Shown piece after piece: positions 1,057 to 20,390 of a stretch of 64,000 nt of DNA. A program made the position numbers and the translations under genes. The notes beneath the pieces were generated by a model, which did not search any database, had not been told where the DNA came from, and was given only the letters and a program-made list of their open reading frames with translations. Origin of the DNA: an uncultured Alphaproteobacteria bacterium (GTDB lineage Bacteria; Pseudomonadota; Alphaproteobacteria; RF32; CAG-239); contig CAKQUE010000001.1 of assembly GCA_934277435.1 (NCBI GenBank), positions 65,652 to 129,651 on the forward strand, given 5' to 3'. Within the stretch, counting starts at the first letter, position 1. Each line of letters begins with the position of its first letter.

Positions 1057-1260
1057 AACAACTTCCCCTTTTTTCAATTTAACAACAAAAAAACCGCCGA
1101 AAAAGCGGCCGGAAGTTGACAACTACTTTACACAAGATAGCGTAGCATATTAGCTAATAGCATATTTTGCTACCTTCCGGCCAGTTGAGCCAGAAGTTAT
1201 GCTAGTTTAGTGTCCGCTATTGCAGACATGTGTAAAAGAGGTTGTCACGCCCCAGACAGA
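1057..1260 (-). promoter_or_regulatory. Structured 5' leader of pilin paralog 1: long-range closing helix, internal hairpins, and a GC hairpin plus U7 tract (intrinsic-terminator-like) immediately before the RBS, with an alternative antiterminator pairing
   Basis: On the minus-strand RNA, CCGGCCGC-UUUUUCG-GCGG is followed by UUUUUUU and ends about 25 nt before the ATG. A 9-nt segment (plus 1174-1182) is perfectly complementary to the 5' half of this hairpin (plus 1107-1115). A closing helix pairs plus 1241-1246 with 1116-1122 and flanking bases. The homologous leader at 19727-19921 supports a functional element. Confidence 0.4.
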
Positions 1261-8857: not shown

Positions 8858-10867
8858 ATGAATAAGATGAAGCAAATAGCGGCTTTGACGGCTATGCTGG
8901 TTGGCGTGATTATGTATGCGTCGCCGGCAAAATCTGCAGTCTGTTTTTTGCCTGATGATGACGGCAGTTGCGGCGGCGGAGATATAGAAATTTCGGACGG
9001 TAGCGGTAGCGATGACGATAAACCGGTAAAAGAATGCAGCGGTTTTACGGTTAGTGCCACAAATTATGACAAGATGAAAGATTGTTTTAATTTTACATAT
9101 TGCACAAAATCAAAAACAAAAGAAGTAGTCTATAAAAAAGGGGGTAAAAAAAGCAATACCCACTGGTATCCTAATTGGAACGCTTGCTGCACAGGTGGAA
9201 CAGCCTATGATTTGAGAGAAGGTAAGTGTTGTCCGGCTGGCGGCTGTGTACACGACGAATGTGACGCCCCGAAAGTATGGAGCAGCATTTTGGGTAACTG
9301 CGTATGTCCGGCTGACAGAGAAGAAAATACAACTAGTAATACGTGTTGTCCTGTTGGCGAACACGCAGATGGTGCGATTTGCTGCCCAGAGAAAAAACAT
9401 AATGACGGCGGCAAGTGTGTGTGTGATGCCAATTATATTCCTGACGGAAACGGTGGTTGTAAAATACCAAGTGTATCCGAAGCTTGTGAAAAAATTAACT
9501 CTGCGTATGTTGCGTTTACTTCCAATGATGACTGCCACAATATTTGTCCGGAAGGTAAAGCGCCTAAATTTATGACGACTGTTGCAAATGGCGCATGCGC
9601 AATTTGCCAACAAACAACCATAAACATTAACATAAATGAAGATGTTGAGATGATTGATGGCACTTCCGGTTTGCAACATGCTAAAATTAAATCATTAAAC
9701 CGCTATGCAGGGTTTACCACAAGTGTTGAGAATGGCTATAATTACAGTGAATTAGCTAAACATAGCAGATGTTCAAGAAATGATAATGATTACAAGGTAG
9801 ATCTTGAAATTATCGGAAAAACATCTGACAGCGGTGTTAGAGATTATAATGCTCCATCGGTATCACCTATAACAACTGCTTCCATGGCTCCTGTTTCTTA
9901 TCCGTTATCAATATATGGAAAAACCTCACAACCTGAATGGGCTTTGTATTGGACCAAAACATTAGCTACGGAAAATGGCAAAAAAGCAGATGCAGAAACA
10001 GGAGGTGGCGTATTCAAAGTTGCAGGAAAAGCTATCTACGGTTTTCCGATGGCGGATACGAACAACTTAATTTCCGGTTTTAGCAAATTAAAGGATTTGG
10101 TTGTACAACCAGGAAAACCATCTGATAATCCATACATTTTGAAATTTACACATAATTTATCTGATTCTGTAAAAAAATGTCGTGAGATTAACGAATTCTA
10201 CGTTTCTGAAAGTGAATCTTGTTATCCAAATAAGACTAAAATGGATGCAGTAGGTCGAGATGGACAGTGCTATGCTTGTAATTCTTGTACTATTAAATCC
10301 GATTGTAAAACTGGTTATACTTTCATTCCAGATTCACCAGCTCATACCGACTACAATGGTAGAAAATGCGGTACGTGTAGTAAAACATATTATATTGATA
10401 TTACGCCGTTTATTGTAAATATAGATAACAATTGCGCAGTAAATGCTAATGTTGATTTAAGCACAGATTCTTCGGCTAAAAATGACCGCTTTATCATAGA
10501 TAATGAAGTTGAGTTGTTTGGAGATGTAAATGTATATATTCGCGAAGGGAAGAAATATGCTCAACTCTCTAACAAATCATTTCTATTAAAAAATGTAACT
10601 GACATTTGGTATGCAGCTGATTATCCAGAAATATATAATGAAAAATTTTGTGAATTGTATAAAAATCGTTATCCGGGAGTATTAGGTAACGGGGTAGATG
10701 GAAAGTTTTATGATTGTGTCGGTGTTGACGACTCTACATCTATTTATATACGCGCAAAAAATAAACGCTATGACTTTGGAACAAATAATTGCGTAACCTT
10801 GTATATAGGTAATGATAATCGAACTATTTGTTATAGAACCAGCAAATTTTCTTGTTCACTATACTAA
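8858..10867 (+). CDS. Large secreted cysteine-rich repeat protein (candidate surface or host-interaction protein)
   Basis: Strong RBS AAGGAGG. Signal peptide MNKMKQIAALTAMLVGVIMYASPAKSA. The N-terminal ~220 aa are packed with Cys, including four or five degenerate CC-[PT]-x-G...G-K/N-C-V units. Acidic Gly/Ser/Asp linker. Own terminator downstream. Confidence 0.7.
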   Translation: MNKMKQIAALTAMLVGVIMYASPAKSAVCFLPDDDGSCGGGDIEISDGSGSDDDKPVKECSGFTVSATNYDKMKDCFNFTYCTKSKTKEVVYKKGGKKSNTHWYPNWNACCTGGTAYDLREGKCCPAGGCVHDECDAPKVWSSILGNCVCPADREENTTSNTCCPVGEHADGAICCPEKKHNDGGKCVCDANYIPDGNGGCKIPSVSEACEKINSAYVAFTSNDDCHNICPEGKAPKFMTTVANGACAICQQTTINININEDVEMIDGTSGLQHAKIKSLNRYAGFTTSVENGYNYSELAKHSRCSRNDNDYKVDLEIIGKTSDSGVRDYNAPSVSPITTASMAPVSYPLSIYGKTSQPEWALYWTKTLATENGKKADAETGGGVFKVAGKAIYGFPMADTNNLISGFSKLKDLVVQPGKPSDNPYILKFTHNLSDSVKKCREINEFYVSESESCYPNKTKMDAVGRDGQCYACNSCTIKSDCKTGYTFIPDSPAHTDYNGRKCGTCSKTYYIDITPFIVNIDNNCAVNANVDLSTDSSAKNDRFIIDNEVELFGDVNVYIREGKKYAQLSNKSFLLKNVTDIWYAADYPEIYNEKFCELYKNRYPGVLGNGVDGKFYDCVGVDDSTSIYIRAKNKRYDFGTNNCVTLYIGNDNRTICYRTSKFSCSLY

Positions 10868-19108: not shown

Positions 19109-19726
19109 TTAGAAGTTCAAAATCAACGAACAATAGCGCAAATCTTCATCATCTATACATGATTTGCATATTTGATTTATTTCTGTAAGTTTCAAATCAC
19201 GTAAACACTCGGTATTTTCATCACCGCAATATGCATTGCCATAATAATAACTTGAGGGAAATTGCCAACGATAAAAACGAACCATGTATAAAACATCGCT
19301 TAGCGGCTGAGCAAAATCTCGAAGCATTGCTTCACAAAATTTGCCTGCGGCTTTGCCATTGCCTTTTCCTTGAATTATTTCCAGTTGAAAATGCCCCGAA
19401 CGAGTGAATATTCCAACTTGATTTCCCCAAGTATCCCTTAAATCTTGAACACTAACTCTAGACCATGTTTCCGGAACTAAATTCATAGCCTTAACCGTTT
19501 CAACTAAGGGATACTGCGTTCCCTCTTTATTTATATTGTTAAATTCATCTATATGTTCAACTAAACCCGCCACAAACATCGAATATTCGCCGACAGTCTT
19601 ATTTATCCGCCACATTTCCATAGCTTTTGAATATCCCGCAATACCACCGACAGACAACACTCCAATAATAGCAAGTACCCCAAGCATTTCTATCATTGAT
19701 CGACCTTGTTGATTTTTAATTTTCAT
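19109..19726 (-). CDS. Type IV pilin-like protein with a prepilin-type N-terminal cleavage/methylation domain (pilin paralog 2), 205 aa from ATG at 19726
   Basis: N-terminus MKIKNQQG|RSMIEMLGVLAIIGVLSVGGIAGYSKAM is nearly identical to paralog 1 over the class III signal; the C-terminal domain is diverged and Cys-rich. RBS AAGGAG upstream of the ATG at 19726. Confidence 0.6.
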   Translation of the reverse strand: MKIKNQQGRSMIEMLGVLAIIGVLSVGGIAGYSKAMEMWRINKTVGEYSMFVAGLVEHIDEFNNINKEGTQYPLVETVKAMNLVPETWSRVSVQDLRDTWGNQVGIFTRSGHFQLEIIQGKGNGKAAGKFCEAMLRDFAQPLSDVLYMVRFYRWQFPSSYYYGNAYCGDENTECLRDLKLTEINQICKSCIDDEDLRYCSLILNF

Positions 19727-19921
19727 ACATCTGAACTCCTTAAACACCAAAAACAAAACCCGCTTTTAGGCGGGCGGATGTTCAGAAACCGTGTATACGC
19801 AAACGGCTCGGCTTATTCAGCTCATAGCCTTATTTAGCCGACATCCGTCCAGCGGAAATCGGCATATAAAAATTTAAGTCGTTTATGCATAACGACTGCG
19901 TATACAAAAAGGGTTTCTGAC
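19727..19921 (-). promoter_or_regulatory. Structured 5' leader of pilin paralog 2, homologous to the leader at 1057-1260, with a terminator-like hairpin plus U-tract abutting the RBS
   Basis: Minus-strand RNA: the closing helix UCAGAAACC/GUAUACGCA pairs with UGCGUAUAC/GGUUUCUGA (plus 19783-19801 with 19897-19920). It contains internal hairpins and a GCUAUGAGCUGAAUAAGCC block homologous to paralog 1. A terminal CCCGC-CUAAAA-GCGGG hairpin is followed by UUUUGUUUUUG. The alternative pairing GACGGAUGU/ACAUCCGCC overlaps the 5' strand of the terminator. Confidence 0.4.
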
Positions 19922-20007
19922 GCCCTAAAAATGCCACTGCATTCTCAAAATCATGTTATCGATAAAAAAATTTTTTGTAAAGACAATTTTATTAAATCAT
20001 TCAAAAA

Positions 20008-20056
20008 TAATGACAACAAAAATATCCCCTCAAAAATGTTTGACGGGGATATATAT
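20008..20056 (-). terminator. Rho-independent terminator of trxA
   Basis: Minus strand: ATATATCCCCGTCAAACATTTTTGAGGGGATAT followed by TTTTGTTGTCATTATTTTT. Confidence 0.45.
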
Positions 20057-20072
20057 TTGGAATTTTTATGGA

Positions 20073-20390
20073 TTATTTATAAGATTCTATCCAAGAAGAA
20101 ATTGTTGATTGTGTGTTTAATCCAACTTTAGTGTCAACTTGTTTGCCGTCTTTAAACAAAAACATGGTTGGAATACTGCGAATCCCAAATTGACTTGCTG
20201 TTTCAGGCGAATCATCAACGTTCATTTTATAAATTTTTACATCATTTCCCATTTCTTCATCAATAGCTTCCAAAATAGGCCCCAGCTGACGGCATGGTCC
20301 ACACCATTCTGCCCAAAAATCAACCAAAACAAGTCCTTTGGAATTTAAAACATTTTCAGAAAACTGATTATCAGTTAACGGTTGCGTCAT
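20073..20390 (-). CDS. trxA: Thioredoxin
   Basis: WCGPC active site, 105 aa, located downstream of addA. Confidence 0.9.
   Translation of the reverse strand: MTQPLTDNQFSENVLNSKGLVLVDFWAEWCGPCRQLGPILEAIDEEMGNDVKIYKMNVDDSPETASQFGIRSIPTMFLFKDGKQVDTKVGLNTQSTISSWIESYK

Follow-up and report, generated by a model that had tools for sequence, protein, structure and literature searches.

The minus strand of a 64,000-nucleotide (nt) stretch of DNA from an uncultured Alphaproteobacteria bacterium (contig CAKQUE010000001.1; hereafter the window) carries, upstream of a pilin-like gene, a structured leader RNA that we interpret as a transcription-attenuating two-state switch of the pilin-like mRNA, a reading to which we give a probability of roughly three in four. 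In many copies of the family to which this RNA belongs, the switch most likely masks translation as well. The whole leader lies between the stop codon of trxA (20073) and the pilin-like ATG (19726, minus strand). An earlier note, made from the letters of the window, had described here a long closing helix, inner hairpins, a terminator and an internal complementary segment, all of which are present on the minus strand. The family has two subtypes, A and B, and the window holds one copy of each; the copy described here is type A (Table 1).

Covariation and the two folds of the leader RNA

The minimum free energy of a 199-nt stretch covering the leader is -72.5 kcal/mol, compared to -51.0 +/- 4.2 kcal/mol for 200 shuffled sequences, none of which equals it (z = -5.06). 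The structure was tested on 90 model-aligned matches (alignment A6), 86 of them distinct, and the conservation and covariation of helices in related genomes, which the earlier note had set as a check, was found on these 86 sequences. In the first fold (fold I), standard pairs fill 95.4% of the cells, compared to 34-44% when the partners are slid by 1-3 columns, 37 of 48 pairs are changed on both sides (14-21 in the slid controls) and the covariation score is 0.482 (0.04-0.07 in the slid controls). Not one of 500 shuffles reaches the observed pairing or covariation values. G.U and U.G pairs together number 558, against 51 for A.C and C.A, an eleven-fold excess that excludes both an inverted repeat at the DNA level and a transcript of the opposite strand. 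The paired region is an RNA structure on the minus strand.

Fold I consists of a long closing helix (P1 and P2), the P3 hairpin, the long P4 hairpin and an intact terminator. In P1, three pairs have both bases exchanged in 34-53 of the 86 sequences, and compensatory changes were found in all eight modelled pairs of P2, which, at 6-13 base pairs (bp) across the family, is the most variable helix. The domain enclosed by the closing helix had been called aptamer-like; the helix is present, but with its variable sequence and length it looks more like a clamp of the off state than a ligand pocket. The P5b hairpin is flanked by a conserved A-rich internal loop (AAAUAAG / GAAUA).

In fold II, the 3' strand of P4, here called the switching strand M, is re-paired with two downstream strands, with D2 to form P5 and with D1 to form P4', the latter overlapping the terminator. 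Pairing reaches 97.1% in P5, where five of the six pairs have changed on both sides. P4' is 97.8% paired, and its compensated states (columns 193-384, CG:66/UA:11; columns 197-378, UA:67/AU:15) bear out the earlier proposal that terminator and antiterminator folds exclude each other. In the window, the internal segment GGACGGAUGU (19850-19841) is complementary to ACAUCCGCCC (19781-19772) with a single A x C mismatch. P4' occupies four of the six positions of the terminator 5' strand; in fold I, D1 is either unpaired or paired with the 5' GGGCGU.

The strongest evidence for two folds comes from relatives in which M has changed and both of its partners, upstream and downstream, have changed to fit it (loci L138, L100/L128 and L068). 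The upstream partner, M and the downstream partner usually read UGCCGAU / GUCGGCU / AGCCGAG, but CGCCGAU / GUCGGCG / CGCCGAG in L138 and CACCGAU / GUCGGUG / CAUCGAG in L100 and L128. Type B has at least six compensated versions of P5, and its P4' alternates between CUGGAAG:CUUCCAG and CCGGAAG:CUUCCGG. A third alternative pairing, Palt, joins GCCGU with ACGGU (ACUAU/AUAGU in type B) and competes with the inner end of P1. The aligned sequences thus indicate that the leader has two mutually exclusive folds, each preserved by compensatory change.

The tract after the terminator hairpin reads UUUGUUUUUGG / UUUGUUUUUG. It had been placed with its end about 20 nt before the ribosome-binding site (RBS), whereas the U-tract ends about 5 nt, and the hairpin 17 nt, before AAGGAG (19741-19736). 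The extent of about 195 nt given earlier also needs correction, as the RNA reaches further 5', to a terminal hairpin (P0) preceded by a promoter-like site. Judging from the sequence, transcription would start about 7 nt past the -10 element, at the foot of P0.

Table 1. Positions, strands and supporting observations for the two leader RNAs, their parts and the regulated gene (window coordinates)
Feature	Position	Strand	Remarks
Leader RNA proper, type A	19750..19925	minus	GGGCGU through terminator U-tract; covariance model R1 183.4 bits, E = 2e-44
Promoter-like site TTTACA-N17-TAACAT	19953..19981	minus	-35 at 19981-19976, -10 at 19958-19953; 9/12 consensus matches
P0, 5'-terminal hairpin UGAGAAUGC-AGUG-GCAUUUUUA	19926..19947	minus	counterpart in nearly all 80 distinct relatives
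P1 5' strand UCAGAAACC	19912..19920	minus	partner GGUUUCUGA, 19790-19782
P1 3' strand GGUUUCUGA	19782..19790	minus	alignment covariation
P2 5' strand GUAUACGC	19898..19905	minus	partner GCGUAUAC, 19800-19793
P2 3' strand GCGUAUAC	19793..19800	minus	alignment covariation
P3 hairpin AGUCGUU-AUGCAUA-AACGACU	19877..19897	minus	97% of cells paired; changes on both sides in 6/6 pairs
P4 long hairpin (fold I), GCCGAU-U-UCCG / loop CUGGA / CGGA-U-GUCGGC	19837..19863	minus	97.1% paired; 7 pairs changed on both sides
U strand (upstream P4 strand) GCCGAUUUCCG			
Switching strand M, GGACGGAUGUCGGCU	19836..19850	minus	P4 3' strand in fold I; pairs with D2 (P5) and D1 (P4') in fold II
P5b hairpin GGCU-AUG-AGCU	19819..19829	minus	89.5% paired; 4/4 pairs covary
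D2, AGCCGA	19808..19813	minus	pairs with UCGGCU in P5 (fold II)
D1, ACAUCCGCCC	19772..19781	minus	pairs with GGACGGAUGU in P4' (fold II); duplex -13.2 kcal/mol
Intrinsic terminator GCCCGC-CUAAAA-GCGGGU + U-tract	19747..19775	minus	hairpin 19775-19758; terminator scan; 98.8% paired, 5 pairs changed on both sides
Regulated pilin-like gene	19109..19741	minus	RBS AAGGAG 19741-19736, ATG 19726, 205 amino acids, prepilin motif G|RSMIEMLGVLAIIGVLSV
Second copy, type B	1084..1252	minus	upstream of paralogous pilin-like gene (ATG 1056); same architecture, other helix sequences
Type B promoter-like site TTTACT-N17-TAATCT	1309-1281	minus	

Family size, promoters and downstream genes

R1, a covariance model derived solely from type A, finds the type B copy of the window with 66.9 bits (E = 2e-15), so that the region 1057-1260, to which the earlier note had pointed, contains a true paralogue. 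Run over the whole window with filters off, R1 finds nothing beyond the two copies. The type B helices are GACAAC/GUUGUC, UUACACA/UGUGUAA, GUCUGC/GCGGAC and GGCCGGAAG/CUUCCGGCC, and its fold has a z of -5.10. Both window copies belong to single-gene units amid housekeeping genes (trxA, tyrS, rplQ, murJ and a histidine kinase), the RNA lying between trxA and tyrS and near rplQ. The pilin-like protein matches Pfam N_methyl with E = 0.0013 and 18.7 bits, which is under the 21.2-bit cut-off.

Homologues of the pilin-like protein number more than 7900, from uncultured gut Alphaproteobacteria, with 581 confirmed places in species-representative genomes and often many per assembly. The RNA was found upstream in 35 of the 80 fetched pilin-like loci, in its two subtypes. 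A DNA pattern derived from the RNA core, and hence independent of the gene, gave at least 125 matches on at least 120 stretches of metagenome contigs. The family was therefore recovered by two routes, through pilin-like protein loci and by a gene-blind pattern. Neither a BLAST search of the leader RNA against plasmids nor a search of viral contigs with the leader pattern gave a match, and literature searches by topic and by sequence string found no description of the leader RNA. As judged from these sequences, it is a many-copy, previously undescribed leader family of uncultured gut Alphaproteobacteria, with RNAs of about 175-200 nt. A third, more divergent group of sequences (L024:2219-2467(+), L146:5582-5794(-) and L136:11858-12074(+)) scores 31-44 bits with R1; these are about 210-250 nt long, their middle is not alignable to P4/P5 of R1, and they keep the ACUUCC before the terminator.

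A promoter-like pattern, TTTAC[AT]-N16-18-TAnnnT, was found in 48 of 80 distinct upstream regions, in most of which the -10 element ends 27-30 nt before the GGG of the RNA. The stems of P0 are unrelated in sequence between relatives, and its loops are mostly of 4 nt (GAUA in 17 cases, AAUA in 10, UUCG in 7 and GAGA in 5).

The leader is not tied to pilin-like genes. In the gene-independent scan, such a gene lies downstream of only 12 of the 125 matches listed, which refutes a pilin-specific regulator. Among the same matches, 91 of the 96 copies with a recognised terminator are followed, 7-32 nt past the U-tract, by an ATG-started open reading frame (ORF) of at least 40 codons, in keeping with the cis-acting structured leader that had been proposed. 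The downstream genes of the matches listed give 62 distinct N-termini, of which 24 are lipoprotein-like, 24 carry a signal peptide and 8 are pilin-like, so that 56 of the 62 distinct products are exported. Pfam matches include autotransporters (PF03797, E = 1e-52), an outer-membrane beta-barrel protein and a PEGA-domain lipoprotein; an EcoRI-type methylase is among the few exceptions.

We also found that the RBS follows the sequence of D1. The D1 sequence ACAUCC of type A occurs with the RBS GGAUGU(U) in 24 of 70 copies, and the ACUUCC of type B with GGAAGU(U) in 12 of 15 copies, to which come three copies with an unclassified D1 (two of which align as type B). The two combinations, ACAUCC/GGAUGU and ACUUCC/GGAAGU, are never crossed. 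Since the RBS sequence tracks D1, D1 probably masks the RBS in the copies with a matching RBS, with a predicted pairing energy of -12.9 kcal/mol.

Relation to sRNA-Xcc1 and to other known RNA classes

Rfam 15 was scanned at the gathering score and, over 19650-20100, at a relaxed E <= 10. Nowhere in the window does a family attain its gathering score, and over 19650-20100 even the limit of E <= 10 brought up no riboswitch family and no c-di-GMP-I/II, T-box, ROSE or other leader class already known, which agrees with the earlier view that the leader fits no known class and lacks the GEMM/c-di-GMP layout. The terminator of trxA (20010-20045, minus strand; AUCCCCGUCAAACAUUUUUGAGGGGAU followed by a U-tract) draws weak spurious matches to the PyrG leader, PyrR and the URE2 IRES, unrelated to the leader.

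Only one family gives a match at E <= 10 that overlaps the leader and recurs in relatives, namely sRNA-Xcc1 (RF02221). This was published as a stand-alone, trans-acting small RNA (sRNA) of 88 nt with an unexplained mechanism (PMC2996969), and it has been found upstream of symE in integron cassettes (bioRxiv 10.1101/2025.06.18.660453). With its model, the window copy reaches 31.4 bits and 11 relatives reach 27.1-40.2 bits (best E = 5e-4), compared to a gathering score of 53, so the match to an annotated sRNA that the earlier note would have counted against its reading was not obtained. The model matches every type A copy tested, in every case over the span from M to D1, and its helices coincide with P4', P5/P5b and Palt, which had been derived from covariation. 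In the reverse direction, a core covariance model made from leader sequences (R2) was searched against three loci with a bona fide sRNA-Xcc1 (69-73 bits with the Rfam model). R2 hits the exact sRNA-Xcc1 positions in all three, namely in L203 (32.1 bits, E = 3e-7), in L202 (18.9 bits, E = 1e-3) and in L201 (two hits, of 21.7 and 21.9 bits, E = 2e-4).

The leader and sRNA-Xcc1 share a three-way core with a junction UUUxUxAAC. P4' is the counterpart of the closing stem of sRNA-Xcc1, P5/P5b that of its first hairpin, which contains an inner hairpin and an A-rich internal loop (AAUA on each side), and Palt that of its second hairpin, GCCGU...ACGGU. In L202 and L203, sRNA-Xcc1 also lies about 40-50 nt before a gene on the same strand. 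The leader differs in scoring under 53 bits, in an additional 5' domain of about 80 nt, made up of P0, P3 and the 5' strands of P1, P2 and P4, which competes with the core, and in a distinct terminator that follows the core. It lies on the chromosome, scattered among housekeeping genes, not in an integron, transposon or plasmid, and it precedes genes for exported proteins and not symE. Whereas sRNA-Xcc1 was described as standing alone at 88 nt, the leader core lies, by sequence and with predicted ends, inside about 200 nt, with the promoter and the 5' domain about 100 nt upstream. Because of the sub-threshold score, the extra 5' domain, the terminator of its own and the chromosomal setting, we regard the leader core, on the basis of these comparisons, as a distant relative of sRNA-Xcc1 and not as a member.

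The position of sRNA-Xcc1 40-50 nt before a same-strand gene makes a cis role for this RNA worth testing. In the two bona fide examples (L202:1182-1272 and L203:1198-1280), the strands of the closing stem resemble an RBS and its complement (GGGAG/CUCCC), which suggests cis regulation, and a U-rich tract follows the closing stem in L202.

Of the features that define a riboswitch, a covarying structured domain in the 5' leader is present and, in silico, so is an expression platform made of terminator and antiterminator. Riboswitches of the c-di-GMP-I (GEMM) class are many-copy, terminating riboswitches that lie before pilus and surface genes. The leader resembles them in its structured 5' position, in the competition between terminator and antiterminator, in its many copies and in its association with pilin and surface genes; unlike in GEMM riboswitches, the outer helix of the leader is its most variable part and the core of the alternative fold its most conserved. 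Mutually exclusive terminator and antiterminator helices are also found in PyrR and T-box attenuators. In the case of PyrR and PyrG, however, the Rfam matches are those on the trxA terminator, far under the threshold, and not on the leader RNA.

Proposed switch and rival explanations

We propose that transcription would start at the leader's own promoter, the protective hairpin P0 being made first. By default (fold I, off), the nascent RNA would form P4 and then P2 and P1, leaving D1 free, so that the terminator hairpin could form and transcription would stop short of the gene; many family members would, in addition, have their RBS masked by the unpaired D1. In fold II (on), the 3' strand of P4 would leave its upstream partner for AGCCGA (P5) and D1 (P4'). 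A trigger favouring the sRNA-Xcc1-like core would thereby remove four of the six terminator pairs and allow read-through, and in many copies the RBS would be freed at the same time. The direction of the switch and its action during transcription are what we infer. The conserved core of fold II would be the sensor, and the variable P1/P2 a mere clamp of the off state, as suggested by invariant, mostly unpaired stretches in and around the core while P1 and P2 vary. As to the trigger, we consider a small molecule about as likely as a protein or some other factor.

Several points weigh against this scheme. The aligned sequences are related, so the cell counts overstate the number of independent events, although many distinct compensated states are found among the variants despite this kinship. 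The comparative analysis establishes the family, both sets of helices, their strand, the terminator and the tight coupling to the downstream ORF; the transcription start site, the premature termination and the read-through are predictions. For the window RNA, fold I is calculated at -71.4 kcal/mol and a fully nested fold II, in which P1 and P2 are melted, at -47.9 kcal/mol. We rejected the latter as the on state, being about 23 kcal/mol costlier, and the far greater stability of fold I means that switching needs either kinetic control or a pseudoknot that keeps P1 and P2. If P1-P3 are kept and P4 is exchanged for P5 and P4' before the terminator 3' strand is made, the two states become about equal (about -50.2 vs -51.5 kcal/mol, with the pseudoknot penalty excluded). 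We therefore favour an on form in which P1 and P2 would persist in a pseudoknot, for which the support is indirect: the unpaired linker from GAGCCG to the P2 3' strand is 3 nt long if P2 has 7-8 bp and 6-8 nt long if P2 has 10-13 bp, as would be expected of a linker that has to span the helix. In the type A copy of the window, D1 pairs only weakly with the RBS AAGGAG (-4.9 kcal/mol), which makes translational masking doubtful there and leaves the control of termination as the relevant level. Finally, some copies are orphans, with no ORF behind them (L082:762-933(-), L153:156-327(+), L182:3174-3346(+) and L104:32-204(+)); in L082, L153 and L182, the orphan is followed, about 270 nt downstream, by a second, tandem copy, which is equipped with a promoter of its own and precedes a lipoprotein gene.

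The orphans would suit an independent gene for a trans-acting sRNA, of which the terminator would be the 3' end and to which the adjacent pilin-like gene would be incidental or linked by background read-through. This explanation could also draw on the reciprocal match between the core and sRNA-Xcc1, which was detected as an 88-nt RNA (PMC2996969), and on the strong terminator that ends the default fold, so that a transcript of about 200 nt would accumulate. We nevertheless consider it unlikely: the same-strand ORF begins only 7-32 nt past the U-tract in the 91 of 96 copies among the matches listed, which leaves no room for a separate promoter, the RBS sequence covaries with D1, and the bona fide sRNA-Xcc1 fetched here themselves lie 40-50 nt before a same-strand gene. 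A trans role could in any case exist alongside the cis role. A constitutive 5' untranslated region, which would stabilize the mRNA or fix the level of termination without a regulated switch, is less probable still. It would agree with the great stability of fold I and with P0, which resembles known stabilizing 5' stem-loops, but it leaves unexplained the compensatory changes in P5 and P4' that match those of P4 as well as the tracking of the RBS by D1.

A protein- or factor-dependent attenuator, in which an RNA-binding protein would stabilize the sRNA-Xcc1-like core and permit read-through, is a serious candidate, if one at somewhat less than even odds. Long invariant single-stranded stretches (AAUAAGG and AAUAAGCCGAGCCGU) suit recognition by a protein, and the regulated genes have export in common and not a metabolic pathway, which is unusual for metabolite riboswitches; however, multi-copy control of surface and pilus genes is likewise exerted by riboswitches for second messengers, and this explanation is a variant of the two-state switch that differs in the trigger alone. 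Scarcely credible, finally, is an element acting at the DNA level, such as the repeats of an invertible segment, a miniature transposon or a recombination site. The long inverted repeat of P1/P2, with arms that change together, the likely invertible promoter with perfect inverted repeats of about 23 bp in other paralogues of related genomes, and the occurrence of sRNA-Xcc1 in integron cassettes could be read in this way. Against it stand the eleven-fold excess of G.U over A.C, the bulges and the stem sequences that differ between copies, the GNRA and UUCG tetraloops in P0, the fixed orientation relative to promoter, terminator and gene, and the lack of matches in the plasmid and viral-contig searches.

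Three further mechanisms were considered and rejected. A short ORF lies inside P4 (19863-19828, minus strand; AUG CCG AUU UCC GCU GGA CGG AUG UCG GCU AAA UAA), but in relatives the AUG of AUGCCGAUU is replaced by ACG, ACA or GUG, and in type B the ORF is missing altogether, which speaks against attenuation by a leader peptide; as the start codon is lost by changes that preserve the pairing (L138 and L100), the ORF is probably not translated. An RNA thermometer was rejected because the Rfam scans found no ROSE or thermometer family and because fold I, at about -71 kcal/mol, is so stable that it would not melt in the physiological temperature range. As to CsrA-type control through GGA, the loop of P4 is often UGGA but varies at this position (GAGC, GGGC, AGGC, GUGC), and the type B loop has no GGA.

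More tentatively, the sRNA-Xcc1-like core could be the sensor of a new class of riboswitch or riboregulator, responding to a second messenger or to the state of the envelope or of secretion and governing, by way of numerous leaders in each genome, a large part of the surface proteins that are exported; by extension, the widespread sRNA-Xcc1 of Proteobacteria would be cis-acting sensors and not trans-acting sRNAs. We hold this wider idea to be possible but doubtful. If true, its reach would cover the autotransporters, pilin-like proteins, outer-membrane proteins and lipoproteins which an uncultured lineage of the human gut exports. As uncultured gut Alphaproteobacteria have this RNA before many genes for surface proteins, it is probably a central control over how the surface is presented to host, phage and neighbours. 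The leader can be studied in vitro even though the host organisms resist culture, and both states of the switch are defined comparatively, which provides precise mutants and probing targets for a search for the trigger. The link also gives a testable cis-regulatory role to sRNA-Xcc1, which is found in integrons, plasmids and genomic islands and whose mechanism has been unexplained since 2010.

Some further observations concern the pilin-like paralogues and the rest of the window, which at 8858-10864 (plus strand) contains an ORF of 669 amino acids without a Pfam match at E <= 0.001. Many pilin-like homologues (L005:2300-2504, L011, L021, L032 and others; alignment A2, columns 1-200) have 60-200 amino acids before the G|RSMIEML prepilin site. 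Repeats that are palindromic and in frame make up these N-terminal extensions; one of them, GGATTGCTTCGTCGTTACACTCCTCGCAATGACG, is read as LLRRYTPRND. The sequence CTCGCAATGAC was counted 38 times, in 32 of the loci L001-L080, and 0 times in the window. Other pilin-like paralogues lack the RNA leader (L016:2190-2420, also L004, L011, L015, L030, L032, L034, L036, L041, L043 and L060). These leaderless paralogues have a segment of about 110 bp between perfect inverted repeats of about 23 bp (GTGTGTAAAAAAAACGACCGTT ... AACGGTCGTTTTTTTTACACAC), directly before AGGAGGAATAAGATG. By its sequence, this segment resembles an invertible promoter; if it is one, the leaderless paralogues would be subject to phase variation.

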